Positions 1,964 to 39,908 of a DNA stretch of 64,000 nt are shown here, in pieces. A program made the translations under genes and the position numbers. Every line of letters starts with the position of its first letter. The first letter of the stretch is position 1. The stretch lies in IMG/VR virus record IMGVR_UViG_3300032893_000021, positions 1-64,000 of that record, one strand, 5' to 3'. Origin of the DNA: a virus. The notes beneath the pieces were generated by a model. It made no database searches. It was not told where the DNA came from and was given only the letters and a program-made list of their open reading frames with translations.

Positions 1964-2204
1964 GGCGATCGACGATATTTCCAGACCCATGTCGACGCGT
2001 ACATCAAGGCGAAGTTGCAGAGAGGGAACGATGAGAGTCATCCAGAACGACCTTGAGGTCCGGCCGCGCCGCACCCGGCTGGCGAGGCGGCTCCGCGTCA
2101 GGTGGCTCGGGGCCAGGCGCGGCGCCCTCTCGCTCCGCGAGCGGGCCGCGCTCCGGCTGGCCCCGTGGCTCGCCGAGGGCGACTGAGCAGAATGGGGTCG
2201 ATTA

Positions 2205-4160
2205 CTGGCGCTGCGCGTTAGGGGCCGCTGGCCGGAGCTCTCGGTCGAGGCGGTCGACCTCCTCGCGGACGCCGTCCGCGCCGAGAGGTTCGCCTCGATG
2301 CGCGCCCGCGAGGCGCGGCGGACCATGTCGACGCGCTCGTTCTCGGACGGCTACAGGCGGTTCCGGGGACGGGTCGCCACCCCGTGGTTCCACGACGTCT
2401 GGTACGCGGCGCTGGACGCGCCCGAGCTCGACCGGATCCTGATCCAGGGGCCACGGGAGCACGCGAAGACGTCGGTCGTCCTGACGTACGCCCTCCGCCG
2501 CCTCGCGGAGGACCACCGGCTCCGGGTCGGGATCATCTCCGGCTCGGACGACCTGGCGATGAAGTTCCTCAAGGAGCTCCGCTACGAGTTCGAGGGGAAC
2601 GAGGCGCTCCGCCGGGACTTCAACGGCGGGGCCGACTGGCGCGGCGACCAGTGGACCGACCACGAGTTCGTCCTCTCGGACGCGCGGACCGGCACGGACG
2701 GCATCAGCGGCAAGGACGTGTCCGTGTTCTCGGTCGGCCAGGGCGCCCAGATCAGCTCGCGCCACTGCGACCTCCTCATCGTGGACGACGTCGAGAGCGC
2801 CAAGTCGGTCAAGAGTGAGCTCGTCCGCCAGGCGACCCGGGAGTGGTGGGCCCGCGAGGTCGCGCCCGTCCTCTCGGCTGGAGGCAAGCTGGTCGTCCTC
2901 GGCACGCGGAAGCACTTCGACGACCTCTACGCCCATCTCATCGAGGGCGACCCGGACCTGTCCGAGGACGAGGCGCAGACGTGGCACATCGTGGACGTCG
3001 CGAAGTCGGTCTGGCGCCCGGGCCTGCCCGAGTGGGCGGAGGGCTCGCAGATCTGGCCCGAGATGTGGAGCGTCCCGGCCCTCCGGAAGCGCAAGCGCGA
3101 GCTGGACCGGGCGGACCTCCTGGCCTGGCCGCAGGAGTACCTGAACGAGCCGCGGCCGTCCGGGGTCCAGATGTTCTTCCCGGAGCGCTGGCCGACGTTC
3201 CGGCGGGCCCCGTGGGGCCTGACGTTCTACCAGGGCTGGGACCTCGCCATCAGCACGAGGGAGCAGGCGGACTACACATGCGGCTGGACGGTCGGCGTCT
3301 CGGCCTCGAACGAGGTCTACCTCCTGGAGCAGCGCCGCGGCCACTGGGACTTCAACAGGACGCTCGCCGAGATCGGGGACATGGGGCGCCGCTGGTCGGA
3401 GGAGCCGTCCGGGACGCTGGCCGCGGTCGGCATCGAGTCGGTCGCGTACCAGGCGGCCGCCGTGCAGGAGGCCCTGCGGCGCACGATGCTGCCGATCGTC
3501 CCGGTCAAGGCGGACAAGGAGAAGACGGTCCGCGCCCGCCTGCTCGAGGCGCGCGCCGGGCAGTTGATGGTGTTCCGGCCGGACCCGCCGCCCCCGTGGT
3601 GGGACGAGTTCGCGGCCGAGGCATCGTTCTTCCCGGACGGGGCCCACGACGACCAGGTTGACGGGCTGGCCCATGCCGTCCGCCTCGCCGGGTGGTCGTC
3701 CGAGTCGATCGCCTACGCGATGGGCGTCTGGACCTGCTCCAAGTGCGGGCACATGTTCATCTGGGTTGCCGGGCGGCCGTGCCCGTCGTGCGGCGAGCGC
3801 GCCCCGGCCGAGTTCGGCGACCCCGAGCTCGAGCGGCGCGGCGCGCTGGGGGCCGGGATCGAGTTCTGGCGCGGCGGCGGCGACGCAGGGCCGGGCATCG
3901 CGCAGCTCTCGCCACGGGACAGGGACGCCGCCGACATGGTCGAGGCCGGGGAGCCGCCCGCCTACGACCCGGCCACGTGGGCGGAGGTCCGCGCCTCGCT
4001 CCGGAGGGTCGCGGAGTGGTACGCGGACGGCGGCCAGGACGTCAAGTCGCAGATCGCGCTCGAGATGGCGGGCGCGCTGGAGGCCAGGTCGAGGGAGCCC
4101 GAGCGCCCGGCCGAGATCGCGTGGACGGTCTACGGCGGCGGCGGGAACGGTGCCCACTGA
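2205..4160 (+). CDS. terL: Terminase large subunit with C-terminal Zn-ribbon extension (start CTG 2205 or ATG 2298)
   Basis: Walker A-like QGPREHAKTS, Walker B LLIVDDVE, coupling motif VVLGTR, RNase H-like nuclease motifs GWDLAIS..DYT, GIESVAYQ and HDDQVD. Confidence 0.93.
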   Translation: MALRVRGRWPELSVEAVDLLADAVRAERFASMRAREARRTMSTRSFSDGYRRFRGRVATPWFHDVWYAALDAPELDRILIQGPREHAKTSVVLTYALRRLAEDHRLRVGIISGSDDLAMKFLKELRYEFEGNEALRRDFNGGADWRGDQWTDHEFVLSDARTGTDGISGKDVSVFSVGQGAQISSRHCDLLIVDDVESAKSVKSELVRQATREWWAREVAPVLSAGGKLVVLGTRKHFDDLYAHLIEGDPDLSEDEAQTWHIVDVAKSVWRPGLPEWAEGSQIWPEMWSVPALRKRKRELDRADLLAWPQEYLNEPRPSGVQMFFPERWPTFRRAPWGLTFYQGWDLAISTREQADYTCGWTVGVSASNEVYLLEQRRGHWDFNRTLAEIGDMGRRWSEEPSGTLAAVGIESVAYQAAAVQEALRRTMLPIVPVKADKEKTVRARLLEARAGQLMVFRPDPPPPWWDEFAAEASFFPDGAHDDQVDGLAHAVRLAGWSSESIAYAMGVWTCSKCGHMFIWVAGRPCPSCGERAPAEFGDPELERRGALGAGIEFWRGGGDAGPGIAQLSPRDRDAADMVEAGEPPAYDPATWAEVRASLRRVAEWYADGGQDVKSQIALEMAGALEARSREPERPAEIAWTVYGGGGNGAH

Positions 4161-12142: not shown

Positions 12143-13039
12143 GTGGACTACAGGCTGGGGCGGCGTCCCCCCAAGGGCGCCCCGGCGCTGATGCTCGGGC
12201 CGCTGCTCACCGGGAAGATCCCGGCCCACCCGGCGAGCGAGGACTACCTCGCCGCCCTCGGCGGCGGCTGGCAGATGCTCGGCAACGACCAGTACGGCGA
12301 CTGCGTCGCCGTGACGTGGGCGAACGTCCGGAGGCTCGTCACGGCCGTCATCGGCCCGGGCGAGCGCTACCCGACGATGGCCGACGTGATCGAGGTCTAC
12401 AAGACCCAGAACCCGGGATTCCCGTCGCAGGACGACGGGATGGACATCCAGACGCTGCTCGAGTGGCTCGTCTCGACGGGCGGCCCGGACGGCGTCAAGG
12501 CGCTCGCGTTCGCCAAGGTCGACCTGTCCTCCAAGGACGAGGTCGAGGCGGCGCTCGCGATCTTCGGCTTCCTCTGGACCGGCATCAACGTCCAGAGGGC
12601 GAACATGGACGACTTCGACGCGGGGCGGCCCTGGGACTACCACCCCGGGAGCCCGGTGGAGGGCGGCCACTCGGTCGTCTCGGGCGGCTACACCGGGGCC
12701 GCGTCGGGCGCCGACGAGCGGTTCATCACGTGGGCGGCCGAGACGTCGTTCACCGACGCGTTCTGGGCGCGCGAGGCAGAGGAGGCCTGGGTCGTGATCT
12801 GGCCCGAGCACCTCGGGACCGGGACATTCGAGCAGGGGATCGATCAGAAGGCCCTCGCCGACGCCTACACGGCGTTGACGGGGCGCCCCTTTCCCGTCGC
12901 CCCCGGTCCCCGGCCCGACCCCGCCGACGCCGCCCTCGCCGACTCCGTCAGGGTGTGGGCTTCTGCTCGGCACTCTGGCGCTAACCGGCGCGCTGCTATG
13001 GCTGTGGAGGCGTGGTTGACGGCCAAGGGCCTGGCGTAG
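12143..13039 (+). CDS. Papain-like (C1-type) cysteine peptidase
   Basis: MLGNDQYGDCVAV (Cys), GGHSVVSGGY (His), FITWA; AGGAGG SD. Confidence 0.7.
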   Translation: MDYRLGRRPPKGAPALMLGPLLTGKIPAHPASEDYLAALGGGWQMLGNDQYGDCVAVTWANVRRLVTAVIGPGERYPTMADVIEVYKTQNPGFPSQDDGMDIQTLLEWLVSTGGPDGVKALAFAKVDLSSKDEVEAALAIFGFLWTGINVQRANMDDFDAGRPWDYHPGSPVEGGHSVVSGGYTGAASGADERFITWAAETSFTDAFWAREAEEAWVVIWPEHLGTGTFEQGIDQKALADAYTALTGRPFPVAPGPRPDPADAALADSVRVWASARHSGANRRAAMAVEAWLTAKGLA

Positions 13040-13089
13040 GATTGGCCGGGGCCCCTCCCCGGGGCCCCCCTCTCACCCGGAGGACGGTA

Positions 13090-16000
13090 CTGGCGAACCC
13101 GAACGCGATCGCAGCGGGACTGGCGGCGAGGGCCCAGGCGCAGGGGGCGCTGGCCGGTCCCGGCTCCTCGCCCCTGACCGCCTCGTACAACCAGTGGGTC
13201 GCCGGGTCGCCGGTCGGGGGCGCGGCCCTCCCGGCCCCGTTCTACGACTTCCTCGCCGGGGCGTTCGGGCCCCTGTCCCCGATCCAGCCGATGCCGGTCG
13301 ACGTCGTCCCCCGGGACGACGAGGGCCGCCCGCTCCCGCGCCGCTGGCAGTACCCCGTCGGCTGGAACCTCCCGGTCGGACAGCCAGGCACGGAGGGCTA
13401 CCGGCTCGCCTCCTACGCCACGCTCCGCCGCCTCGCCGACGGGTACTCCGTGATCCGGGCGATGCTGAACATCCGCAAGAACGAGATGTCAGGCCTCAAC
13501 TGGGACGTCGGCGCCACGGGCGACGCGCAGTCGAGGACGAAGGGTGACAAGGGGGCCGCGAAGGACCAGCGCTCGCGGGCGGCCGAGGTCGTGCGGTGGT
13601 TCAAGCGCATCGACTCGAACTACTTCGGGTTCCAGTCGTGGTTCGAGGCCGGGCAGGAGGACCAGCTCGTCATCGACGCCGTGACCCTCCACCCGCTCCC
13701 GACGCGCGTCAAGGGGAAGGGCCTGTTCGGCTGCGGCGTCGCCGAGCTCGAGCTGATCAACGGCGAGACGATCAGGCCGCTCGTCAACATCCGGGGCGCC
13801 TCGCCGCGCTTCCCGGAGGTGGCGTACCAGCAGTACCTCTGGGGGGTCCCCCGCTCGGACTTCGCCGCGATGGCCCGGGACGAGGACGTCGAGGAGCTCG
13901 CGGTCGACTACGGCCTCGACGGTGTCGAGCCGGACGCCGAGTACACGCGGCGCGAGCTGCTGTACCTGCCGCGGAACCAGCGGACGTGGACGCCGTACGG
14001 GTTCAGCCCGATCGAGATGGCCCTGATCCCGGTCACGATCGGCATCCAGCGCCAGGGCTTCCTGCTCGACTACTTCACCGACGGGACGATCCCGGGCGTC
14101 TACGTCATCGCGGGCGAGTCGTACGTGACACCGTCCCAGCAGCGCGGGCTCCAGGACCTGATCAACGGGATCGCCGGGGACGTCGGGCAGAAGCACCGGG
14201 CGATCGTCCTGCCGCCGGGCTCCAAGACGGAGCCGCAGAAGGACATGACGTTCCAGCAGGCGGTCGACCAGGCGATCGTCGAGCAGGTCGCGATGATCCT
14301 CCACATCCAGCCGCACGAGATCGGCATGGTCCCGGGCGGCCGGACCAGCGGCCTGGGCGGCGCGGGCATGGCCCAGGTCCAGCAGGACTCGGTCGTCGAG
14401 AGCCGGACCGAGCCCGAGCGCAAGTGGTGGAAGGGGAAGTTCGACTGGCTGATCCAGGAGGTCATGGGCCAGGAGGACCTCGAGTGGAAGTGGCTCGACT
14501 TCGAGGAGGAGCAGGACGCCGAGCAGAAGGCGAACGCCGACAAGGCGGACGTCTCGATCGGCAAGCGCTCGATCGACGAGCAGCGCATCGACGACGGGCT
14601 CGACCCCTGGGACCTGCCGCTCACCAAGACCCCGTTCGTCATCGGCGGGCCGTCCGGCATCATCCCGCTCGACCCCTCCGTCCCGCCGCCCGCGGCGCCC
14701 GCCCCGGCCGGGCCCGGCGGCGCCCCGGGGCCCGGCGGCTCGCCCGCCCAGGGCGCCCTGGCGGAGGCGCTGAAGCCGGACGGCAAGGACGCCTCCAAGC
14801 CGAGGCACGACCCGGCCGCCGCGCTCCTGTCGGACAAGAAGAAGGACCGCCGGAAGGGCCGCAAGGAGCTGGCCGACCGGTTCGCCGACAACCTCAAGGA
14901 CGCCGTGAAGGACAAGCCCGCCGTCCTGGGCGGCGCCGCCGGGCCCGGCGCGGCACTCGAGCCGTCCTCCGCGGGCGAGGGGGCCGACAAGGCCAAGGGG
15001 GCCACGGTCGCCGACCTGATGAAGTGGCGCACCAGGTACAACGACTCGAAGCTGCCGCGGATCGTCCACGACTACCTGCTCCGCTCCTACCCGAAGGGCG
15101 ACATCGACTGGTCCGAGGACCCGGCCATCGCCTGGGAGTTCGATCCCCACGTCAAGCTGTCCGACATCGACATGGCGCGGCGCCCGGGCGGGCGCGACCC
15201 GTCGAAGGTGTCCGCGATCGCAGACACGGTCGGCAAGGGCGCGTCGATGGACCCGGTCGTCCTCGTCGAGTACGAGACGCCCGACGAGGCCGGGCTGAAC
15301 ATCGCCGACGGCTGGCACCGCACGCTGGGCGCCGAGAAGGCGGGCGAGGACGAGGTCCCGGCGTTCGTCGGGCGCGGCGTCCCGGACAAGTACCGCGACC
15401 TGATCGACGGCCGCATGCAGGACGACTCGGGCAGCAAGAAGAAGGCCGCGCTCGCCGAGCTGTCAGTCCTCGGGCGGTACGTCCGGAAGCACGGGTCGGC
15501 CGAGGGGTTCGAGGCCCGCGCGATGGACCCCGACGTGGTCAGGCTCTTCAAGGCCGAGACGGCGCGTGGCGAGACCGGCCCGGCCCTCGAGCGCGCCCGG
15601 CGCCGGGTCCTGAAGGAGGGCGGCAACCCGCAGGCCCTCCGCGACTGGTACAACGCGGGCGCCGACGGCCAGATCGACTGGGGCTCCGACGGCGACTTCG
15701 ACCAGTGCGTCTCGGTCGCCTCGAACTACATGTCGGACGAGGACGCCAGGGGCTTCTGCAACCTCCGGCACCAGGACGCCGTCGGCGGCGCGCCGGGGAC
15801 CGAGAAGAACTTCAGCGTCGGCTCGCCGCTGGCCTCCGGCCTCGCCCCGTACGACCTCGACACGGGCGAGCGCCCGGCCATCGGCCCTCGGTGCACGTCC
15901 TGCGGCGCCGCGCTGTTCCCGGGCTCGGCCGACTACGGCGACGGGCGATGCGCCGACTGCCAGATCAGCGAGGACGTCCAGCGCCGGTCGCCAGGCGAGC

Positions 16001-16842
16001 CGATGTTCAACGACTCGGCCCCGGCCGTCCTGCTCCGCGCGATCGAGGCGGAGCTCACGCGGCGCGGCGTCGACCTCGCCAAGTGGAACCCCGACCAGCC
16101 CCGCGACGACAGGGGGCGGTGGACGGCGGGCGGCGGCCCGTCCGGCGAGGTCCCGGTCGTCCAGGACACCCGGAAGATCGGCGACTTCCCGCAGGAGGTC
16201 CAGGACGCCGCCCGGTCGGTCACCGCGCGCGCCGCGGCCGCCGAGCCCAGGGTCACCGCAGACATGGCGCACATCGCGTCGGCCACCGGCGGGAACCTGA
16301 ACGAGCGCTTCACGGGGCCGGACGGCAAGGAGCACGGGACGCTCGACGCCGTCCTGAAGAGCGACAGCTCGACCGCCCGCAAGATCGCGGACGACATCCG
16401 CGACAAGGGGTACACGACGGCCCAGTCGGCGGCCCAGGTCTACGACGCCCTCCGGTACACGGTCACGTACCCGGCGGGCGAGTACGCCAAGGGGGCCGAG
16501 CGGGCGATGGACGACCTGAAGGCGGCCGGGTACGAGCCGCTGCGCGGCAAGGACTTCTGGAGCGACGCGAGCCAGGGGTACGCCGGGGTCAACACCGTCT
16601 GGGGCGACCCGCGCACCGGGCAGAGCTTCGAGGTCCAGTTCCACACCCCGGAGGCCCTCCAGTACAAGGAGGGCGTGGGGCACCCGGTCTACGAGGCCTG
16701 GCGCGCGCAGCCGGAGGGCTCGGCCGCCCGGGCGTACTACGACTCGAAGGTCAACGAGGCCTGGCAGCCGATCCGGGACGCGGTCCCCTACCTGGACGCG
16801 CTCAAGGACTTCATGACGGGGATGTTCCCGCCGCGGAACTAG
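13090..16842 (+). CDS. Portal protein fused to a ParB-like domain, a small Cys/Trp domain and a RelA/SpoT-like nucleotidyltransferase (start CTG 13090)
   Basis: Portal features (DQLVIDA, LELINGETIRP, YLPRNQRTWTPYGFSPIE, YFTDGTIPG, SIDEQRIDDGLDP) over about 13090-14650. ParB motif DPVVLV..IADGWHRTLGA at about 15250-15340. Synthetase motifs KSDSSTARKI, DALRYT, GYAGVN, FEVQFHT at about 16350-16650. Confidence 0.88.
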   Translation: MANPNAIAAGLAARAQAQGALAGPGSSPLTASYNQWVAGSPVGGAALPAPFYDFLAGAFGPLSPIQPMPVDVVPRDDEGRPLPRRWQYPVGWNLPVGQPGTEGYRLASYATLRRLADGYSVIRAMLNIRKNEMSGLNWDVGATGDAQSRTKGDKGAAKDQRSRAAEVVRWFKRIDSNYFGFQSWFEAGQEDQLVIDAVTLHPLPTRVKGKGLFGCGVAELELINGETIRPLVNIRGASPRFPEVAYQQYLWGVPRSDFAAMARDEDVEELAVDYGLDGVEPDAEYTRRELLYLPRNQRTWTPYGFSPIEMALIPVTIGIQRQGFLLDYFTDGTIPGVYVIAGESYVTPSQQRGLQDLINGIAGDVGQKHRAIVLPPGSKTEPQKDMTFQQAVDQAIVEQVAMILHIQPHEIGMVPGGRTSGLGGAGMAQVQQDSVVESRTEPERKWWKGKFDWLIQEVMGQEDLEWKWLDFEEEQDAEQKANADKADVSIGKRSIDEQRIDDGLDPWDLPLTKTPFVIGGPSGIIPLDPSVPPPAAPAPAGPGGAPGPGGSPAQGALAEALKPDGKDASKPRHDPAAALLSDKKKDRRKGRKELADRFADNLKDAVKDKPAVLGGAAGPGAALEPSSAGEGADKAKGATVADLMKWRTRYNDSKLPRIVHDYLLRSYPKGDIDWSEDPAIAWEFDPHVKLSDIDMARRPGGRDPSKVSAIADTVGKGASMDPVVLVEYETPDEAGLNIADGWHRTLGAEKAGEDEVPAFVGRGVPDKYRDLIDGRMQDDSGSKKKAALAELSVLGRYVRKHGSAEGFEARAMDPDVVRLFKAETARGETGPALERARRRVLKEGGNPQALRDWYNAGADGQIDWGSDGDFDQCVSVASNYMSDEDARGFCNLRHQDAVGGAPGTEKNFSVGSPLASGLAPYDLDTGERPAIGPRCTSCGAALFPGSADYGDGRCADCQISEDVQRRSPGEPMFNDSAPAVLLRAIEAELTRRGVDLAKWNPDQPRDDRGRWTAGGGPSGEVPVVQDTRKIGDFPQEVQDAARSVTARAAAAEPRVTADMAHIASATGGNLNERFTGPDGKEHGTLDAVLKSDSSTARKIADDIRDKGYTTAQSAAQVYDALRYTVTYPAGEYAKGAERAMDDLKAAGYEPLRGKDFWSDASQGYAGVNTVWGDPRTGQSFEVQFHTPEALQYKEGVGHPVYEAWRAQPEGSAARAYYDSKVNEAWQPIRDAVPYLDALKDFMTGMFPPRN

Positions 16843-22357: not shown

Positions 22358-25300
22358 GTGCCCGACCTCCTCTCGGCGCTCCCGACCGCCGACCTCGCCC
22401 GCCTGCGCGCCGACCTGCTCCGCTACTCGGAGGACGAGGCGCGGGACGACAGGGGGCGGTGGACGGCGGACGGGGGTTCGGTGGACGTCGGGCCCGGCTT
22501 CCGCACGTCGGGCGTCCCGCGCGAGTACGGCGACCGCGTCCTGTCGACGGTGGGGCGCCTGTCGGCCCAGTTCCCCGGCGTCCGCATCGCGGTCGACGCC
22601 CGGACCGGCGACGACTTCCGGGCGACCTCGACCGGCAGGGACAAGCCGGGGACGGTGACGATCGCCCGATGCGAGGGCAACGCCCTGCGCGGCCAGACCA
22701 TCGTGCTCAACGGTGGCCAGGTGTCCCTCGACGACGTCAACCCCCTGACGGCCGTCCCCGGCCCCGAGGGCGTCGCGGCCCACGAGTTCGGCCACGCGGT
22801 CGACGCGTACATGATGACGGCCGGGGCCGGTCTCAAGGACCTCGGCGGGGACGCGATGCGCGACTACCTCGACTGGCGCCAGCGGCTCCTCTCGACGCAG
22901 GGCATCCGGGGCTTCGGGTCGTCCTACTTGACGGGGCGCCTCGACGCCTCGGGGAGGTACGAGCGGGTCCGCCTCGGGTGGTCGAAGCTGTCCTGGTACG
23001 CGGGCACCGACCCGCGCGAGGCCGTGGCGGAGGCGTTCAGCGCGGCGTACACGCCCGGCAGCCCGGGCTACGACCACCCGGCGTGCGCCGAGCTCCGCGA
23101 CGTGCTCGCGAGGGCCGGGTCGGCCGCTTCGGCGTCGGGCAAGGCCGTCAAGTTCGACGACTCCGAGGAGCGCGTCCCGGCCGGGTCGCCCAACGGCGGC
23201 CAGTGGACCTCCGGCGGCGAGGCGCTCGCGTCCGAGGCGGCGGCGTACGAGGCGCGGTGGCCGAACAAGGCGGTGCTCGACACGGTCCCCGAGGGCCTGA
23301 CGCCGGAGCAGACCGCGCTCCTCGCGTCGCTCGGGCTCGACAAGCCCCAGCCCGCGATCCAGCCGGACTTCGCCGCGATCGCCGACCCGCACCACGGCCT
23401 TGAGGCGGTCCGCGAACTCGCCCGGCTGCGCGAGGCGTTCCCGTCGATCCGCGTCTCGTCGCTGGAGATGCGGATGCCGTCGACGCTGATCAACTCGTCT
23501 CCGTCGGACGACCAGCGCGTCGTGGCCCGGACGGTCATCGACTCGATCGTGCTCAACCCCAACTGGTACGGCAAGGACGGGCCGTCCCTCGACCAGTTCT
23601 CGGACGGCGCCAAGTACCACCCCGACGGGTGCGGGACCCCGGCCGGGTGCATCACCCACGAGTTCGGCCACGTCCTCGACCACGCCCTCGAATACGACCA
23701 GACCGCCGCGGGCGAGGCGTACCGGCAGTGGCGCTCCGACTACCTCTCGTCGGGCACGCGCATCTCCGCCTACGCCCGCACGAACGAGTGGGAGGCGATC
23801 GCAGAGGTGTTCTCCGCCGCGTACGCCCCCGGCTCGCTGGCCACGGGCAACTGGGGCGCCGTCGGCCTCCGGGACGTCCTTTCCTCGACCGGCGTGTACA
23901 CGGGCAAGGCGGCGACGGCCGACCTCGCCAAGTGGAACCCCGACCAGCCTAGGGTACCCGCGGGCGAGCCAGGCGGCGGCCAGTGGGAGGGCGGCTCGCC
24001 GGTCGCCGGGGCGTTCCGGTCCGCGCTCGACGGGATGCCGAGGCCGTCCGGCTCGATCGCCGCCCAGGTCGCGTTCCACGACTGGTTCAAGCAGGCCTCC
24101 GGGGGCGACGGGCAGTGGGACGTCTCGGCGCTCTCGCGGCAGCCGGACACGGGGCGCTTCTCCGCCTCGATGGCCGTCCTCTCCGCCTCGTTCCCCGACG
24201 TCACGGGCGGCGTCGGCGTCAAGGTGACGGACGGCTACGCGATCCACGCCGGGGTCGGGACCGACGCCGTCGCGTGGGCCGACTCCCTCGCGTACCCGCA
24301 GACGGTGACGCTCGAGAAGATGATGTGGGCGACCGGGGCGACCCGGCTCCAGTGGGGCGACGAGGCGTCGAACGGCTTCCACCCCGAGGGCTGCTGGGCA
24401 CCCGAGGGCGTGGCCGCGCACGAGTTCGGGCACCTCGTCGACGCCGTGCTCCGCGACACGGCGGACGACGAGAGGGTCGCCGACCTGAACGCCTTCCTCC
24501 TGACCCACACCGCCTCGGGCTACGGCGCGCGGTCCGGCACCGAGAACTTCGCCGAGTGGTTCGCGGCCGCGTACTCCCCGACGTCGCCGCTGGCGGGCTC
24601 CGCCGACTGCCGCGACTTCCGGGCGATCGTCGAGTCGTCGATGGTCCGCAAGTACGACGCCAGCGAGGCGCGGGACGAGCGCGGCCGCTGGACGGCCGGG
24701 GGCGGCGGGCTCGACGGCCTGACGCTCCGGCTCGACGGCGTCCACCCCGACATCCGCCCGGGGCTGGAGTCGACGCTCGCCCGCATGGCCGACCGCTACC
24801 CCGTCCTCCGCGAGCGCGGCCTGATCGTCAACCGGCTCCCGACGATCGGCGGCGCCCTCGCCGACACGGCGTACCCGATGCCCCAGACGTTCTACAAGGC
24901 GTCCATCAACCTGAGCTCCGCGTACGAGCGACCCGGCGACCCGAGGTGGGCCGAGGAGCCCGGGTGGTCCGTGTCGCAGGGCCCCGAGGGCACGCTGGTC
25001 CACGAGATCGGGCATGCGCTCGACATGTACAACGGCGGCGCCGGGGCTCGGGCACTGGAGGCGTCCGGGCCGTCGCGGGGCGCGTACGGCGGGACCCGGT
25101 ACGGCACGGCGGCCTCGCTGTACGGCGCGACCGGCGGCCCCGACGAGCGGTTCGCCGAGGCGTTCGCGCAGGTCAACCTCGCGCCGGAGTCGGAGTGGTC
25201 GCCGGACGCCCGGATCGTCGCCGCGCTGTACCCGCCCGTCACCAAGGCCGCGGCGCCCGACTTGACCAAGTCGCTCCGGTTCCTCGACCGGGCGCGCTCG

Positions 25301-26704
25301 ATCCTGCGGGCCGGGTTCCTCGCGGCCCTGGTCGGCGGCGCCCGGGACGCCGCGGCCGAGGCGGGCGAGGACCCGGACCTATGGGGCGAGGGCGACTTCG
25401 GGGACGAGGCGGACGCCCTCGTCGAGGGCCAGCACCACTGGATCGCCGGGCTGGCGTCGGTCCTCGCGCTCGGGCAGCTCACAGAGGGGATGCTCTCGTC
25501 GCGGGCGGGGCTCTACGCGAGCGGCATGTACGGCGCGTACGAGTCCGGCTTCGCGGACGGCGTCGGGGCGTCACGGCCGGGCTGGACGGCCACGTGGAGG
25601 ACGGAGGGCGACAAGGAGGTCTGCGAGCTCTGCGCCGACCGCGACGGGGCGTCCTGGCCCGCCGACGGGTCGTACCCGCTCCCCGGCGAGGGCGGCTTCG
25701 GCGACCAGTGCGACGGAGGCCCGAACTGCCGGTGCGCGGTCGACTACACGTACGACGGCGACGCGGCCCAGGCCCCCGACGCCCCAGAGGAGCCGCTCGA
25801 CGTCGCGGCCGCCGCCACGGCCGACCTGCTGAAGCTCCGCGACGGCGCTATGTGGGACGAGTACTGGAACTCTAGGTCCCCGGCCAAGGTCGCCGACCCG
25901 GACTGGACGGAGCTCCCGACCCCGACGCTGCTCCGGGTGGCGGCGGTCCTGCGCAAGTACAGCGAGGACCAGCCGCGAGTACCGGCGGGCAGCGCAGAGG
26001 GAGGCGAGTTCGCGTCGGCCGGTGGCGAGTCGGCCCACCTCGCGGCCATGTCGAGGATGGACGCGGCCGGGGTCGCGGCGTACGTCGAGGCCCACACGGG
26101 CACCAGGGTCGACTACTCCCGCACGGACAACTACGGTCACGCGATCCCCGACGCCAAGCCGAAGATGTCGTGGCTCCGCCCGGCGATGGCGCGGTTCGTC
26201 GCGCTCCACGAGCAGTTCCCAGGAGTGACCGTCACCAAGATCGGGTTCGGGACCGCGTCCGGCAAGAACGCGGGCAGCGTGCTCGCGTTCTGCACCAGGG
26301 ACCCGTGGAACGGGACCTCGGAGATCACGCTGGTCACGACGTACTGGGCCGGGCACTGGGGCATCAATATGGCAGAGGGCTGGAACGCGGCCGGGCCGAG
26401 CCCGGAGGCGATCATGACCCACGAGTTCGGCCACGCCGTCGACGCCGCCGCCTTCCGGGCGGCGGACCAGCAGACGGTCTACCCCGACTCCGACCTCGGG
26501 TGGCGCCTCAACACCTTCATGAAGGCCCCGGCGATCTCGGGCTACGGGCGGTCGGACGACTCCGATCTCCGCAAGGAGAAGTTCGCCGAGCTGTTCGCGG
26601 CCGTGTACGCGCCGACGGGGAACCCACCGGCAGACCAGGAGGCCGGGCTGCGGGCGTACCTCGCGGCGGCGCTCGGGACCGCCAAGGCCGCGCTCGTCGG
26701 CTAG
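22358..26704 (+). CDS. MuF (head morphogenesis) polyprotein with five zincin-like metallopeptidase domains
   Basis: HEFGH/HEIGH at about 22781, 23657, 24419, 25001 and 26420, each followed by S-x-Y...E-x-x-AE-x-F. MuF signature WRTEGDKEVCELC..GGPNCRC at about 25594-25740. Confidence 0.8.
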   Translation: MPDLLSALPTADLARLRADLLRYSEDEARDDRGRWTADGGSVDVGPGFRTSGVPREYGDRVLSTVGRLSAQFPGVRIAVDARTGDDFRATSTGRDKPGTVTIARCEGNALRGQTIVLNGGQVSLDDVNPLTAVPGPEGVAAHEFGHAVDAYMMTAGAGLKDLGGDAMRDYLDWRQRLLSTQGIRGFGSSYLTGRLDASGRYERVRLGWSKLSWYAGTDPREAVAEAFSAAYTPGSPGYDHPACAELRDVLARAGSAASASGKAVKFDDSEERVPAGSPNGGQWTSGGEALASEAAAYEARWPNKAVLDTVPEGLTPEQTALLASLGLDKPQPAIQPDFAAIADPHHGLEAVRELARLREAFPSIRVSSLEMRMPSTLINSSPSDDQRVVARTVIDSIVLNPNWYGKDGPSLDQFSDGAKYHPDGCGTPAGCITHEFGHVLDHALEYDQTAAGEAYRQWRSDYLSSGTRISAYARTNEWEAIAEVFSAAYAPGSLATGNWGAVGLRDVLSSTGVYTGKAATADLAKWNPDQPRVPAGEPGGGQWEGGSPVAGAFRSALDGMPRPSGSIAAQVAFHDWFKQASGGDGQWDVSALSRQPDTGRFSASMAVLSASFPDVTGGVGVKVTDGYAIHAGVGTDAVAWADSLAYPQTVTLEKMMWATGATRLQWGDEASNGFHPEGCWAPEGVAAHEFGHLVDAVLRDTADDERVADLNAFLLTHTASGYGARSGTENFAEWFAAAYSPTSPLAGSADCRDFRAIVESSMVRKYDASEARDERGRWTAGGGGLDGLTLRLDGVHPDIRPGLESTLARMADRYPVLRERGLIVNRLPTIGGALADTAYPMPQTFYKASINLSSAYERPGDPRWAEEPGWSVSQGPEGTLVHEIGHALDMYNGGAGARALEASGPSRGAYGGTRYGTAASLYGATGGPDERFAEAFAQVNLAPESEWSPDARIVAALYPPVTKAAAPDLTKSLRFLDRARSILRAGFLAALVGGARDAAAEAGEDPDLWGEGDFGDEADALVEGQHHWIAGLASVLALGQLTEGMLSSRAGLYASGMYGAYESGFADGVGASRPGWTATWRTEGDKEVCELCADRDGASWPADGSYPLPGEGGFGDQCDGGPNCRCAVDYTYDGDAAQAPDAPEEPLDVAAAATADLLKLRDGAMWDEYWNSRSPAKVADPDWTELPTPTLLRVAAVLRKYSEDQPRVPAGSAEGGEFASAGGESAHLAAMSRMDAAGVAAYVEAHTGTRVDYSRTDNYGHAIPDAKPKMSWLRPAMARFVALHEQFPGVTVTKIGFGTASGKNAGSVLAFCTRDPWNGTSEITLVTTYWAGHWGINMAEGWNAAGPSPEAIMTHEFGHAVDAAAFRAADQQTVYPDSDLGWRLNTFMKAPAISGYGRSDDSDLRKEKFAELFAAVYAPTGNPPADQEAGLRAYLAAALGTAKAALVG

Positions 26705-35472: not shown

Positions 35473-38088
35473 CTGGCGACGCGGGCCGGTAGGGGCGACG
35501 ACATCGAGTACGGCTGGGTCCCGATCGTCAAGGTCGAGCGGGACCCGCTCGACCCGTCGGTCAGGATCGTCTACGGGAAGGTGACCGACGGGACGGTGGA
35601 CTCGGACGAGCAGATCGTCGACCCCGAGTACGCCCGGAAGGCGATGGCCGACTGGTACGAGACGGCCGCGAACGTCCGACAGATGCACAGCACGAACCTG
35701 CCACCGGCGGGCAAGGGCATCATGCTTGAGCACCGCGACGGGGACGGGGCCGAGGGCGGCGAGTGGGTCCGGTCCCGCGTCGTCGAGCCGACCGCGGTCA
35801 AGCTCTGCGACGAGGGGGTGTACGGCGGCTACTCCGTCGGGATCGCCCGGCCCCGGATCGTCCGTGACGCCCGGGCCCGCGGCGGGCGCATCGTAGGCGG
35901 GCGCATCGTCGAGATCAGCCTGGTCGACCGGCCCGCCAACTACAACGCCAAGTTCGCCCTGGCGAAGGCCGACCGGTCCGGCAGGATGGCCTACGTCGGG
36001 AAGGTCGTCTCGCTCCGGCCCGCCGAGGTGGACCCGGCGCCGCGCGCGCCGCGCATCCGCGAGGGCTCGGTCATCAAGATCACCGAGGCCGACGGCTCAG
36101 TCGCCACGGGGCGCGTCGTCACGGCCGGGGCGCGCTGGGCGCGCATCGACACGCTCGGCTACGGCGGGACCGGGATCGAGCTAGTGGACCGGCGGGGCGC
36201 GAGCGTCGAGAAGTACAGCGACTCACAGGAGCGCGACGACCACGGGCGCTGGTCCGGAGGTGGCTCGGGCGAGGGCACCCGGTCATGGCAGGACAGGGTC
36301 CCACCGGCCCACCAAGGGCGCGAGGGGCACGATGTCCACCTCGTCCTCAACGGCGGGGCCAACGTTCGCGGCACGGTGTCGTCGGTGACGCCCGACAAGA
36401 CAGTCTTCCGGACGGGAGCCACGACGGCCGGGTCGAGCCCCGGCATGAGGACGAACGGGGATCCCCCCCAGACGTACGTCGACCACTCGGAAGTGGCCCA
36501 GATCAAGGACTACACGACCAACGAGCGCGTGAGCCCGAACAACATCGTACTCGGCACAGTCAAGGCGCAGGCGGGGCCTAATCCGGCCGACATGGAGGAC
36601 TCTGTGGCAGACGACGCGGACACCACCAAGGGGGCCGACCTCGCGTCTGCCGCCGAGAACATCGCCGACGCGGCGGACGACCTCAAGGACGCGGCCGGGG
36701 ACCTCGGCGACACGGCCGGTGGGGACGACTCGGACGACGGGGACGACTCGGACGCCGACAAGGCGGCCAAGGGCAAGGTCCCGCCCCAGTTCCTGGAGCA
36801 CCAGAAGCCGAAGGCTGGCGCCGACGCACCGGCCGACGGCGCTGCGGACGACGACTCCGCCGACAAGGCCGCGGGCCGCAAGTGCCCGTCCTGCGGCGGG
36901 ATGTTCGGCGACTCGGACAAGTGCGTGAAGTGCGGCAAGGCCTGGACGACCGACGGCACCGACGACGCCGAGAAGGCCGAGCGCAAGGCGGCCAAGGCCG
37001 CGCGCAAGGCCGCCAAGGCCGCGGCGGCCAAGATCGTCGCGGCGCCCGGCGACGGCGAGGAGGTCTCCTACCTCGTCCGGCGCGCGCACGACGTCACCTG
37101 CGGAGCATACGGGACGGACGCGCTGGCGGCCGCCTACCCGTCCGTCGAGAAGAGGCTCGGGGACGCGCTCGGCGCGTCCGCCCGCGACGCGGCCTACGCG
37201 GCCCTCGCGTCCGAGGTCCGGGAGGGCGGGACGCCAGCGGGCATCGTGGCGCTCGGCAAGGCCATCTCCGCCCTCGACGCCCTGTCGGGGCACGCCGAGG
37301 CGCTCGCCGCGGCCCGCGAGGGCCTCGTCGAGGCGTTCCGCGCGGCCAACAAGGACGCCGCCGAGCCGGTCGGGCTCCCGAGCCCGTCCGAGACGATCAC
37401 GCCCGGCCAGTTCCGGCGCGGCTACATCTCGGAGGGCCACCAGGACCAGGGCGGCACGGGCCACCCGCACGCGACGATCCCGTCTGCCACCCACCCGCTG
37501 GACCCCGCCTCGATCGACCGCGGTCCGCTGACGGACGGGCACCAGCGCTACCTGGCCTCCAAGATGGCCGAGGTCCACGACGGCCTCGCCGACTGGAGGC
37601 CCGAGCTCTGCCTGATGGACGCCGGTGGCTCGAACGCCTTCGACCGGCAGCCGTACCCGTCGCCGTCCCAGAGGCCGCCCGCCCTGCCGTCGATCCCCAA
37701 CCGGTCGGCGGACTCCGGCCCCGTCCCCGTGGTCGCCGTCCCGGCCGCGGCGCCCGTCGCCAAGACGTACACCCCCGAGGAGTTCGAGGCGGCCCTCTCG
37801 AAGGCCACCGCGCCCCTCGCCACCAAGATTGCCAACCTGGAGCAGGCGTACGAGGACCTCGCGTCCTCGCCTGACACGACGGCCGCCGCCCCGCGCGGGC
37901 TCCGGCAGCCGTCGGCCTCGGACAAGCTGGCCACCGCAGACGCCGCCAAGGCCGCGCGCAAGGCGCGGAAGGCGGAGAAGCGCTCGCGGCGCGCCGGTTT
38001 CTACGAGGACCTGGCAGGCTCCTCCGACCCCGTCACCCGGAACCGAGCGGTCGACTGGCTCGCCCGCCACGGCCGGTCCATCAACTGA
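35473..38088 (+). CDS. Prohead protease (HK97-type) fused to a tagged insert and a scaffold region (start CTG 35473)
   Basis: DSDEQIVD..VRQMH (His)..YGGYSVGI (Ser)..EISLVDRPAN. Acidic and KA-rich scaffold-like C-terminal half, with an internal GGAGG-GTG at 36604. Confidence 0.85.
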   Translation: MATRAGRGDDIEYGWVPIVKVERDPLDPSVRIVYGKVTDGTVDSDEQIVDPEYARKAMADWYETAANVRQMHSTNLPPAGKGIMLEHRDGDGAEGGEWVRSRVVEPTAVKLCDEGVYGGYSVGIARPRIVRDARARGGRIVGGRIVEISLVDRPANYNAKFALAKADRSGRMAYVGKVVSLRPAEVDPAPRAPRIREGSVIKITEADGSVATGRVVTAGARWARIDTLGYGGTGIELVDRRGASVEKYSDSQERDDHGRWSGGGSGEGTRSWQDRVPPAHQGREGHDVHLVLNGGANVRGTVSSVTPDKTVFRTGATTAGSSPGMRTNGDPPQTYVDHSEVAQIKDYTTNERVSPNNIVLGTVKAQAGPNPADMEDSVADDADTTKGADLASAAENIADAADDLKDAAGDLGDTAGGDDSDDGDDSDADKAAKGKVPPQFLEHQKPKAGADAPADGAADDDSADKAAGRKCPSCGGMFGDSDKCVKCGKAWTTDGTDDAEKAERKAAKAARKAAKAAAAKIVAAPGDGEEVSYLVRRAHDVTCGAYGTDALAAAYPSVEKRLGDALGASARDAAYAALASEVREGGTPAGIVALGKAISALDALSGHAEALAAAREGLVEAFRAANKDAAEPVGLPSPSETITPGQFRRGYISEGHQDQGGTGHPHATIPSATHPLDPASIDRGPLTDGHQRYLASKMAEVHDGLADWRPELCLMDAGGSNAFDRQPYPSPSQRPPALPSIPNRSADSGPVPVVAVPAAAPVAKTYTPEEFEAALSKATAPLATKIANLEQAYEDLASSPDTTAAAPRGLRQPSASDKLATADAAKAARKARKAEKRSRRAGFYEDLAGSSDPVTRNRAVDWLARHGRSIN

Positions 38089-38114: not shown

Positions 38115-39908
38115 CTGGCAACCCTGTTCAGGGCGGGCGACTTCCGCCCGTCGTCCGGCAAGGCCCGGACCGAGCTGGCGACCCAGGCCGCCGAGCTCGT
38201 CAAGGGCGAGGGGTACGCCCGCGTCGGCGGCAACAGGCCGCTGCGGAGCACCTCGAAGATCATGGACCACGGCATGCGCCTCGCGAAGGCCATGCGGAGG
38301 GTGTCCGAGCGCTCCCGCCGGGACGGCGCCGACGCCTTCAAGTCGATGAACCCGTCGTTCATCACCGAGTTCGGCCGCTTCTACGCCGCCCAGCCGCAGC
38401 AGCAGGCGATGACCCAGCTGTTCGCCGCGGTCCAGGAGCTGGCCGCCTCCGTCGGCAAGACGATCTCGCTCTCGTCGCCGCTCTCGACGGGCCTCGTCCC
38501 GTACGACCTCGTGGCCCCGAGCCGCCTGATCTACCCGGTCTACTCGCCCCTCCGCAACAAGCTCCCCAGGACCCAGGGCCAGGGCACGTCCCGCCGGGTC
38601 AAGGTGTTCACCGGCATCTCGGGCTCGCACACAGGCGGCCAGTCCGTCCTGCGCTGGTCCATCCCGGAGTTCCCGGGCGGCGGCGGGCTCGCCGCGACGA
38701 ACTGGCCCAACCAGCTCCCGGCCGCGGGCTCCCAGCACGCCGAGGACGTCACGATCCCGTACAAGTTCTTCGGGATCACCGAGGCCCTCTCGTGGCTCGC
38801 CCAGTTCAGCGGCCAGGGCTTCGAGGACATCTCGGCGCTCGCGAACCTGATCCTGCTGCAGGAGGCCATGCTCGCGGAGGAGCACACGATCCTCCAGGCG
38901 AAGATCGACAACGTCTCGGCCCCGTCCGCGCCCACCGTCGCTGCCCGCACCGCGGCCACCGGCGAGACGGCCCTGTCGGGCGTCACCACGGCGGTCTACG
39001 TCAAGGTGACGGCCACCACGTTCTTCGGCGAGTCCCTGCCGTCCTCGGCGGGCACGGCGAACTGGTCGGCCGGTCAGGTCTGCGACGTCACGATCGTCCC
39101 GACCGCGGGCGCGGCCCAGTACAACATCTACGTCACGACCGGCACGGCCGCCGGGACGTACTACCTGATGGCCTCCGGCGTCGGCGGCCACAAGTACACC
39201 CTGCAGGGGGCGCTCCCGACGGGCGGCACCCAGCCCCCGACGGCCGACTCCGGAACCGGCAACTCCAACGACTACGACGGCCTGTTCCCGATCCTCGACG
39301 GGTCGACCCACACGGGCTCCTACCCGGCGTCCGGCTACAAGGCCGGGTACATCAACCAGTCCGTCGGCAGCCAGCTGACGATCGCCGTCCTCGCCGACAT
39401 GTGGCGCGGCCTCTGGGACAACACGGCGTCGAACAACGCCTCGGACTCCGGCGGCTTCCGGGCCGACCCGGCCGAGCTGCTCGTCGAGGGCACCGACTCG
39501 GCGAACTTCGCCGAGAACATCCTCGCGCAGTCCTCGGGCGGCCAGCAGGCGTACCAGATCCGCATCGACATGGACGACGTCGGGAACATCCGCGCTGGCG
39601 CCGCGGTCTCCCAGATCCAGAACCCGATCACGCGGTCGATGGTCGCCCTCGTCACCCACCCGTACATGCAGCAGGGCAACGCGCTGGCGCTGACCTACCA
39701 GCTGCCCCAGTCGTTCTCCAACGTCGGCAACGCCTGGGAGGTCACGAACGTCCAGGACTACGTCAGCATCAGCTGGCCGGTCATCGACGTCACGTTCCGG
39801 TACTCGCTCTTCCAGTACGGCGCCCTCGTCGGCATCGCCCCGCAGTTCTCCGGCCGCCTCGGCGGCATCCAGAAGTCGGGCGACTCCACGAACGGCAACT
39901 GGGCCTAG
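38115..39908 (+). CDS. Major capsid protein with an inserted FN3/Ig-like domain (start CTG 38115)
   Basis: Follows the protease/scaffold; GLVPYDL..LIYPVYSPLRNKLPR..GQG, AMLAEEHTIL, YGAL..APQF; followed by a hairpin. Confidence 0.85.
   Translation: MATLFRAGDFRPSSGKARTELATQAAELVKGEGYARVGGNRPLRSTSKIMDHGMRLAKAMRRVSERSRRDGADAFKSMNPSFITEFGRFYAAQPQQQAMTQLFAAVQELAASVGKTISLSSPLSTGLVPYDLVAPSRLIYPVYSPLRNKLPRTQGQGTSRRVKVFTGISGSHTGGQSVLRWSIPEFPGGGGLAATNWPNQLPAAGSQHAEDVTIPYKFFGITEALSWLAQFSGQGFEDISALANLILLQEAMLAEEHTILQAKIDNVSAPSAPTVAARTAATGETALSGVTTAVYVKVTATTFFGESLPSSAGTANWSAGQVCDVTIVPTAGAAQYNIYVTTGTAAGTYYLMASGVGGHKYTLQGALPTGGTQPPTADSGTGNSNDYDGLFPILDGSTHTGSYPASGYKAGYINQSVGSQLTIAVLADMWRGLWDNTASNNASDSGGFRADPAELLVEGTDSANFAENILAQSSGGQQAYQIRIDMDDVGNIRAGAAVSQIQNPITRSMVALVTHPYMQQGNALALTYQLPQSFSNVGNAWEVTNVQDYVSISWPVIDVTFRYSLFQYGALVGIAPQFSGRLGGIQKSGDSTNGNWA

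Follow-up and report, generated by a model that had tools for sequence, protein, structure and literature searches.

We analysed a 64,000-nucleotide stretch of phage DNA (below, the window), which comprises positions 1 to 64,000 of the IMG/VR virus record IMGVR_UViG_3300032893_000021. The complete record is 89,286 bases long, ~82% complete as a genome, with a G+C content of ~73%, and its source is an uncultured, high-GC phage. Our subject is a short peptide in the C-terminal extension of a portal–enzyme fusion, which repeats the peptide found at the leader/body junction of the major capsid protein of the same phage. The features on which the argument rests are listed here with their window coordinates.

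13012..16842, plus strand: portal–enzyme fusion ('polyvalent' portal), 1276 aa from GTG 13012, taken from the open reading frame (ORF) list and its translation; the true start is uncertain
15616..15804, plus strand: small helical domain of the portal fusion, residues 869–931, ...CNLRHQDAVGGAPGTE, ending just before K932 (phrog_6439 and AlphaFold 2 (AF2))
15805..15858, plus strand: portal copy of the capsid junction peptide, K932 and then NFSVGSPLASGLAPYDL (BLASTP, shuffles, profile)
15892..15960, plus strand: zinc ribbon (C961, C964 ... C980, C983), directly after the portal peptide (sequence)
16081..16137, plus strand: linker tag K-WNPDQPRDDRGRW-TAGGG, of a post-Lys type that recurs in the head proteins of this phage (sequence)
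16342..16722, plus strand: C-terminal cargo domain resembling small alarmone synthetases of the RelA/SpoT type (phmmer against the PDB, phrogs)
35473..38088, plus strand: putative prohead protease–scaffold fusion, directly upstream of the capsid gene and ~21 kb downstream of the portal ORF (start at 35473 or 35581, end at 38088)
38115..38459, plus strand: capsid leader (delta-like), ~115 aa if CTG 38115 is the start, its last residue a conserved Lys (38457–38459)
38457..38510, plus strand: capsid junction peptide K-TISLSSPLSTGLVPYDL, where the mature N-arm is predicted to begin (BLASTP; near-invariant in the family)
38460..39908, plus strand: body of an HK97-fold major capsid protein with an Ig/FN3-like insertion (phrog_13692, E 6.4e-67; VIA-align)

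The sequence-only reading of this stretch had pointed to a gap-free match between the portal and capsid peptides, and both its coordinates and its letters proved to be as given. Positions 15805–15858 encode KNFSVGSPLASGLAPYDL, that is, K932–L949 of the 1276-aa portal ORF, while positions 38457–38510, inside the capsid ORF, encode KTISLSSPLSTGLVPYDL. Eleven of the 18 residues are identical and 14 are positive, and the match forms the top BLASTP segment of the two proteins (E 0.001, calculated for this single pair). Both copies follow a Lys, before which the residues differ (GTEK in the portal versus SVGK in the capsid). When the capsid 19-mer was run against all six frames of the whole record, it gave the portal site a score of 59; the best of 1000 shuffled peptides had 48 (mean 30.1), and a Gumbel fit gave p ~1.7e-5. 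Regular-expression (regex) scans of the window matched the peptide pattern at the portal and capsid sites only. The same two sites were the only ones matched by a profile hidden Markov model trained on other phages alone, with 32 distinct copies from non-capsid proteins and without the copy studied here: the capsid junction gave E 1.6e-11 and the portal site E 7.6e-10, and the next match had E 1.7. Overall, the likeness of the portal and capsid peptides is confirmed as real. At the DNA level, 39 of 57 bases agree between the copies, with a conserved Ser written as AGC versus TCG and one Leu as CTG versus CTC; such synonymous differences rule out a fresh DNA duplication of the peptide.

A candidate third copy in the portal core, ...SIGKRSIDEQRIDDGLDPWDL (14554–14619, residues 515–536; BLASTP match to the junction with E 1.6), was rejected. 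This segment has the Lys-to-Gly spacing of the junction, which the same-clade portals P0134 and P0144 keep; GLDPW[DN]L is found in more distant portals too, but there the basic residue is spaced differently. Most probably, the segment represents a general portal motif that resembles the junction by chance.

The identification of the downstream ORF as a capsid was borne out by its model. In VIA-align, the AF2 model of the capsid, with a mean predicted local distance difference test (pLDDT) score of only 65, matched the SPO1 capsid at Z 12.8 (root-mean-square deviation 6.5, 244 aligned) and a total of 45 chains at Z >= 8, mostly capsids and encapsulins among the rows listed, as expected of an HK97 fold. 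The top Foldseek matches of the model were capsids as well (E 5.4e-4), and tblastn matched the 'major head protein' of Alicyclobacillus phage MMB025; no Pfam family matched the capsid. Its family comprises 1130 proteins at E <= 0.001 among 8000 candidates scored. Related prophages, at the loci L087, L089 and L090, occur in Streptomyces sp. NPDC093261, Actinoallomurus vinaceus and Arthrobacter terricola. We also observed that capsid residues 215–332 (ATG numbering; ~38904–39257) form an Ig/FN3-like insertion, modelled with high confidence, which matches FN3 domains and the tail-muzzle domains of phicrAss001 at Z 7–8.

The junction was detected in 109 of 120 listed capsid homologues, the other 11 being N-terminally short or outside the regex, and has the consensus Lys, then x-h-[ST]-h-x-[ST]-P...G-h-x-P-[YF]-[DN]-L. 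In 106 of the 109 junctions, a basic residue (K in 101, R in 5) stands 11 positions before the Gly, which agrees with the proposed border between leader and body; the remaining three have either an insertion or belong to a subfamily with the basic residue further upstream. Upstream of this residue, the homologues carry leaders of 45–150 aa, and downstream of it the sequence is almost invariant, the junction peptide being as conserved as the shell fold itself. A leader of about 115 aa, as originally suggested, holds for the phage studied here given a non-ATG start. The N-termini of homologues P0031, P0024 and P0041 align upstream of the first ATG (38262), from near CTG 38115, which lies 5 nt after GGAGGAG, a Shine–Dalgarno sequence, and makes the Lys residue 115; the 65-residue leader that would start from ATG 38262 was dropped, since the homologues reach further upstream. 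AF2 helices span residues 2–64 of the capsid (ATG numbering) and end two residues before the Lys, and residues 65–94 have pLDDT < 50, as expected of an N-arm in a monomer. Among the VIA-align alignments listed, those with solved mature capsids start at model residues 62–98, most of them at 71–92. Homology to distant capsids likewise starts at the junction, from query residue 64 for Thermoanaerobacterium phage THSA-485A and from residues 67 to 75 for others. Because the helical leader ends at this Lys, the basic residue is conserved, the fold alignments begin there and HK97 is cut alike, we infer with good reason, from model and analogy, that the capsid would be cut after the junction Lys.

For the fusion, a portal identity was supported by PF04860 over residues 294–458 (39.3 bits at a cut-off of 39.1) and by phrog_2662 (portal) over residues 100–637 (E 1.2e-37), as the sequence-only reading had proposed, while residues 640–870 matched no Pfam family. 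The small helical domain, matched by phrog_6439 over residues 869–933 (E 8.1e-11), was found by regex in 29 of 30 proteins homologous to the portal extension. An AF2 model of portal residues 859–1039, built on a 12-row alignment, places helices over segment residues 2–66; residues 927–957, which hold the peptide, then have pLDDT < 50 and are followed by the zinc ribbon and a helix. The portal peptide is thus predicted to sit in a disordered linker between the helical domain and the zinc ribbon, and for this reason would be accessible. Across ten aligned copy-bearing portals, which are 50–59% identical overall, K932, S935, P939, G943, P946, D948 and L949 are invariant. The same holds for C961, C964, G965, G978 and C980 of the zinc ribbon, which has a weak match to zf-ChsH2 (E 0.065, below the cut-off).

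In many soil phages, the portal, MuF and scaffold proteins carry appended enzymes and toxin-like domains. In the present portal, a search of the PDB with phmmer matched the cargo domain to 8vx3_A (E 5.7e-14, query residues 72–198, or portal residues ~1111–1237), and phrog_2859, phrog_7625 and phrog_2841 match portal residues 1061–1250. According to the passages available of the corresponding article, the structure 8VX3 is that of SaEAS, an alarmone synthetase exported by Streptomyces albidoflavus (PMC12691689). Judging by sequence, the portal seems to carry a (p)ppApp/(p)ppGpp-synthetase-like domain as cargo, in the manner of the MuF-linked small alarmone synthetase proteins treated in those passages (PMC12691689). 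In tblastn with the portal, Ralstonia phage records were matched over residues 1114–1262, and Streptococcus phages were among the 137 matching records. The fusion therefore combines a portal domain with at least two unrelated modules (the phrog_6439 domain, the zinc ribbon and the alarmone-synthetase-like domain), and its homologues carry PF02195, PF00293 and PF06414. Of 29 related portals found in the records G001–G030, 28 have long open frames of 878–1722 aa, and the one of G029 has 622 aa. The C-terminal extensions of related portals vary, and the precomputed Pfam matches on homologues include ParB, NUDIX, the zeta-toxin-like PF06414 and DUF5872. The C-terminal cargo region of these portals is very mosaic.

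A search with portal residues 860–1000 gave the set of 30 portal-extension proteins, one of them this phage's own, and 19 of the 30 carry the copy: 17 by regex (15 in the long form and two in a short form with Lys at -7) and two, P0148 and P0154, in a degenerate form recognised by eye. Hence, the possibility that homologous portals lack the peptide, which would have spoken against the original idea, does not apply in general, and by regex and eye 11 of the 30 are without a copy. The position of the peptide shifts. It stands directly after the small domain in P0132–P0139, P0141 and P0161, after an added linker of 7–40 residues behind that domain in P0142, P0145 and P0151, 100–180 residues further on in P0140, P0143 and P0144, and ahead of the small domain in P0146; a zinc ribbon usually follows. 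The copy of P0143 is identical in 18 of 18 residues to the capsid junction of the phage studied here. In P0143 and P0144, whose copies lie further downstream, a linker tag begins two residues after the ...EK of the small domain (...EK-IV-KYSPDQPRD...).

Portals are not the only proteins to carry such a copy. In two IMG/VR records, G021 and G026, the sole extra copy lies in the protease–scaffold fusion, after ...LPxSW..K and before a zinc ribbon. A search with the scaffold region gave 86 proteins, of which 19, at the top of the list, carry the copy, all after a Lys and all with N at the D/N position. Thermoanaerobacterium phage THSA-485A provides a distant example: its capsid, 29% identical to that of our phage, begins ...AK-TLNVASGLQMYNL, and its protease–scaffold protein holds ...EK-DLTVASGLSNYNL, which matches its own capsid with a pairwise E of 0.012. 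Overall, a Lys precedes the copy in 38 of 39 cases, namely all 17 regex portal copies, all 19 scaffold copies, THSA-485A and P0154; in P0148, a Lys is found only further upstream. The middle of the peptide is the sole site of insertions and deletions, which occur as discrete forms; both in capsids and in copies, the Lys takes position -11 or -7 relative to the Gly. The flank after [DN]-L is V/L-A-P in capsids, A-G in portal copies and Q-G in scaffold copies. Where a whole genome could be inspected, either the portal alone (the phage studied here) or the scaffold alone (G021 and G026) carries the copy, never both.

The extra copy is sporadic among near-complete relatives. Among 16 records at least 92% complete, with capsids ~50% identical, neither a scan with each record's own capsid peptide nor the profile found an extra copy in 15; only G021 has one. 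Both G021 and G026 belonged to the training set of the profile, and the own-peptide scan found the two independently. A weak copy in G009, where the own-capsid 19-mer scored 40 against a shuffle maximum of 38, was taken as noise because the profile search did not confirm it. Across 89 capsid-centred loci with flanks of up to 10 kb, only L053 and L078 rose above their shuffles. A metagenome scan with an alignment of copy-bearing scaffolds gave 58 loci, with a scaffold copy only in L230, which is on the same contig as G021. A scan of IMG/VR with the portal alignment gave 10 loci, including one close relative (L218), whose record has no capsid match. In the literature passages retrieved by our search terms, we found no description of a capsid-junction copy in a portal or a scaffold.

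Another check suggested by the sequence-only reading was whether the copy changes together with the cognate capsid. We could compare seven cognate capsid/copy pairs, three from the same record and four paired, by inference, on a shared source and an equal length of the longest contig. The summed cognate identity of the seven pairs was 90, and 44 of 5040 permutations did as well, a signal that is due to differences between clades. The three scaffold pairs placed the cognate order best of 6 permutations, and in a five-pair test including THSA-485A only 2 of 120 permutations did as well. Tracking is thus seen at the level of lineages, in states such as D versus N, the short versus the long form, and PN...YN in G021. 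Within the portal clade, no tracking was found among four pairs (24 of 24 permutations did as well), where the test has little power because the capsid peptides are nearly identical; some conservative changes there go untracked, with F in the copy versus Y in the capsid of one pair and GF in the copy versus GL in the capsid of another. At the sequence level, co-variation therefore holds between lineages and not within the close clade.

The gene next to the capsid deserves a separate comment. The 835-aa protease–scaffold protein matches phrog_21715 (E 1.5e-14), a phrog without a named function, and Peptidase_S78_2 at E 0.016 and 15.7 bits, below the 24-bit cut-off. Its ...EISLVDRPAN... motif is common to the scaffold genes in 61 of 90 sources scanned, and one homologue was named 'phage head maturation protease' by the Joint Genome Institute. 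The fusion of our phage has a zinc ribbon, and neither the regex scans nor the profile found a peptide copy in it. One to three zinc ribbons (CxxC...CxxC) occur in 39 of the 54 distinct protease–scaffold proteins listed for this phage family from the loci L003–L091 (e.g., L011 6965–9733), often as GGKxCPKCGKxYHADSKxxxCxxC and in the middle of the scaffold part. To our knowledge, zinc ribbons have not been assigned a function in scaffolds.

The copy, then, exists, is conserved and recurs in several proteins of the head interior, nearly always after a Lys and in predicted disorder. The reading that we place first, and to which we give about an even chance, is that the portal peptide is a selected, functional copy of the capsid maturation junction and serves as a substrate determinant of the prohead protease, which would cut after the Lys. 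According to this scenario, the protease, in the N-terminal domain of the protease–scaffold protein, would recognise the capsid junction and cut after its Lys, as gp4 of HK97 does. With the same determinant in its disordered linker, the portal fusion would be cut at K932 during head maturation, and the zinc ribbon, the tag and the alarmone-synthetase-like domain would be freed inside the head; in other clades, the same cassette in the protease–scaffold protein would direct self-processing. The cut, its position and the enzyme are what we infer here. We rank this reading first because of the Lys before nearly every copy, the disordered setting, the nature of the host proteins and the precedents of SPN3US and 80alpha (see below). 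The host proteins count in its favour since a scaffold must be degraded and a portal cargo must be freed. We also count for it that the cassette shifts within the portal extension with its Lys kept, and that the putative protease gene adjoins the capsid gene, with the S78_2 match below its cut-off in mind.

Several observations weigh against a role in cleavage. The shared stretch of 17 residues lies almost wholly on the prime side of the proposed cut, the non-prime residues differ, and the recognition motifs of known prohead proteases span few residues, mostly non-prime ones. Nine of the 11 peptide-less homologues keep a Lys 3 to 11 residues from the ...PG motif of the small domain (the exact ...SEK ending is found among them only in P0156); if a Lys alone marks cuts, then the long peptide is unnecessary for cleavage. 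Other post-Lys tags already stand at module borders in this phage. The distal G-h-x-P-[YF]-[DN]-L is kept in the copies while the middle drifts (e.g., SPDPDG in G026), which suggests a binding surface longer than a protease cleft. The lack of an extra copy in 15 of 16 near-complete relatives makes it dispensable for the family, and the protease assignment itself is weak.

As these points fit a binding peptide better, the next reading to consider, doubtful but with a real share of the probability, is that the peptide mimics the capsid N-arm and binds where the start of that arm binds, in a groove that adjacent coat subunits or the scaffold would provide. The portal extension (in other clades, the scaffold) would thereby be anchored to the shell from inside, and the peptide might nucleate assembly at the portal, fill N-arm sites left vacant where the portal replaces a penton, or hold the zinc ribbon and cargo in place; it may nonetheless be cut after the Lys, which would expose a capsid-like N-terminus. 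This would agree with the conservation of all 18 residues, including the distal motif, at the same positions as in capsids, with the identity of the P0143 copy to our capsid junction, with the confinement of insertions and deletions to the middle at Lys spacings common to capsids and copies, with the lineage-specific states shared by capsid and copy, and with the occurrence of the copy on either portal or scaffold. In HK97 Prohead I, the scaffold domain stands at about the place that the N-arm takes after cleavage, as far as the available passages describe it (PMC10275583); because scaffold and N-arm use about the same site in turn, a scaffold-borne look-alike of the N-arm has a structural rationale. 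Nevertheless, the sporadic distribution of the copy is hard to square with a core role in assembly, portals do not require a targeting signal, the monomer model shows the N-arm of the capsid itself with low confidence, and there is no residue-level tracking inside the close clade (e.g., portal F versus capsid Y in one inferred pair).

Docking and cleavage agree in one respect: in both, the copy presents the capsid junction to its reader. It is tempting to suppose, if only tentatively, that both are true, and that the peptide is a cleavable N-arm mimic on the portal extension or scaffold, which would occupy the N-arm/scaffold site during assembly and be released by the same protease cut that frees the N-arm. 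Such a mimic would couple the portal or the scaffold to the growing shell.

We consider it unlikely that the cut instead falls after ...[YF]-[DN]-L. The 18 residues would then be a non-prime recognition sequence lost with the leader, and the mature capsid would start with VAPSRLIYPV.... T4 gp21 reads the non-prime side. The similarity between capsids and copies ends exactly at this point, where V/L-A-P, A-G and Q-G diverge, and most characterised prohead proteases read the non-prime side, as the excerpted description of the SPN3US motif illustrates (PMC10052503). Such a cut, however, offers no explanation for the Lys/Arg, which 106 of 109 capsid junctions and all 36 regex copies share; the Lys also marks the end of the helical leader, and HK97, in the passages available, is cut after a Lys at the border of leader and N-arm (PMC10275583). 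Moreover, alignments to mature capsid chains reach model residues 62–82 in several rows, and the peptide is as conserved as the shell fold, which would be unusual for a discarded propeptide. Least probable by far is a functionless match, arisen by chance or left by recombination or gene conversion between head genes: polyvalent extensions are indeed mosaic, with shuffled modules, and the copy is dispensable in most relatives, but 0 of 1000 shuffles reach its score, its key positions are invariant across ten portals only 50–59% identical overall, it recurs in three protein contexts and in a Firmicute phage, and its synonymous differences show age.

Whichever of the better-placed readings is correct, the cassette is a concrete candidate signal for cutting loose or positioning head cargo. 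It leads to a predicted specificity for the prohead protease, with a cut after Lys and a long prime-side determinant, and to a predicted mature N-terminus, at T116 (TISLSS...) in the phage studied here, for a large capsid family with >1100 homologues. If docking is true, it would bear on how a 12-fold portal ties into a 5-fold vertex, and the peptide might be used to load foreign proteins into HK97-fold shells. If the peptide is a cleavable mimic, self-mimicry would be a previously unrecognised link of portal, scaffold and coat, and enzyme cargo in the heads of actinophages would have a general address-and-release signal.

Two further genes of the window should be mentioned.

2187–4160: large terminase gene
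22358–26704: gene for a 1448-aa protein with five HE[FI]GH zincin-like cassettes and a MuF-like middle part

The 1448-aa protein has Pfam matches to Peptidase_M91 and ATLF, all below the cut-off, and weak phrog matches to a head maturation protease and to a portal C-terminus. Together with the portal fusion and the protease–scaffold protein, it has modules preceded by a recurrent post-Lys/Arg linker tag of the form [KR]-[YWF]-x-x-x-[QE]-x-R...G-x-W-..GG.

Among known systems, the closest class for the portal fusion as a whole is that of the phage polyvalent proteins and portal- or MuF-fused effectors (Iyer, Burroughs, Anand, de Souza, Aravind 2017; PMC5512222). By its sequence the fusion fits this class: like the proteins treated in the available passages, it joins a portal to several unrelated modules, with a PF02195 ParB-like domain in homologues, an enzyme-like C-terminus and a neighbouring 1448-aa protein with repeated HExxH zincin cassettes (PMC5512222). 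It differs in that processing has been proposed there to proceed via the proteins' own metallopeptidase domains, and those passages do not mention a capsid-like junction peptide (PMC5512222). There is also an analogy with shell-binding peptides such as the HK97 scaffold segment, encapsulin cargo-loading peptides and the T4 capsid-targeting sequence, in which an HK97-fold shell is addressed from inside by a short peptide on an internal protein, as the docking reading would have it here. Encapsulin cargo-loading peptides are C-terminal and T4 capsid-targeting peptides N-terminal, and neither resembles the shell protein. The peptide described here, at residues 932–949 of 1276, lies far from the N-terminus that a T4-type targeting sequence occupies.

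In HK97, as described in the passages at hand, gp5 has a 103-residue helical scaffolding domain, cut at K103/S104, after which a flexible N-arm begins (PMC10275583). The analogy to HK97 gp5/gp4 is one of layout only, with a leader of ~100 residues, predicted to be helical, on an HK97-fold coat, a Lys followed by a flexible N-arm, and a putative protease gene beside the capsid gene; a second junction copy in the HK97 portal is not mentioned in the same passages (PMC10275583). A further difference is that here the protease shares its polypeptide with a long, separate scaffold bearing a zinc ribbon, and that its S78_2 match is weak.

Substrates of the T4 prohead protease gp21 share a common cleavage motif. 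In SPN3US, gp245 cuts capsid, portal and ejection proteins at a common motif (PMC10052503), and in 80alpha, CP, SP and L27 share a Prp site (PMC5744158), both according to the excerpts available. The present case would be analogous to SPN3US and 80alpha in that one short sequence appears to mark several head proteins, including portal and scaffold, for one protease, with cargo then freed inside the head. The motifs of SPN3US, T4 and 80alpha are short, lie mainly upstream of the cut and yield N-terminal propeptides, whereas in the phage studied here the 17 shared residues follow the presumed cut, coincide with the predicted N-terminus of the mature coat protein and are placed deep in a C-terminal extension.

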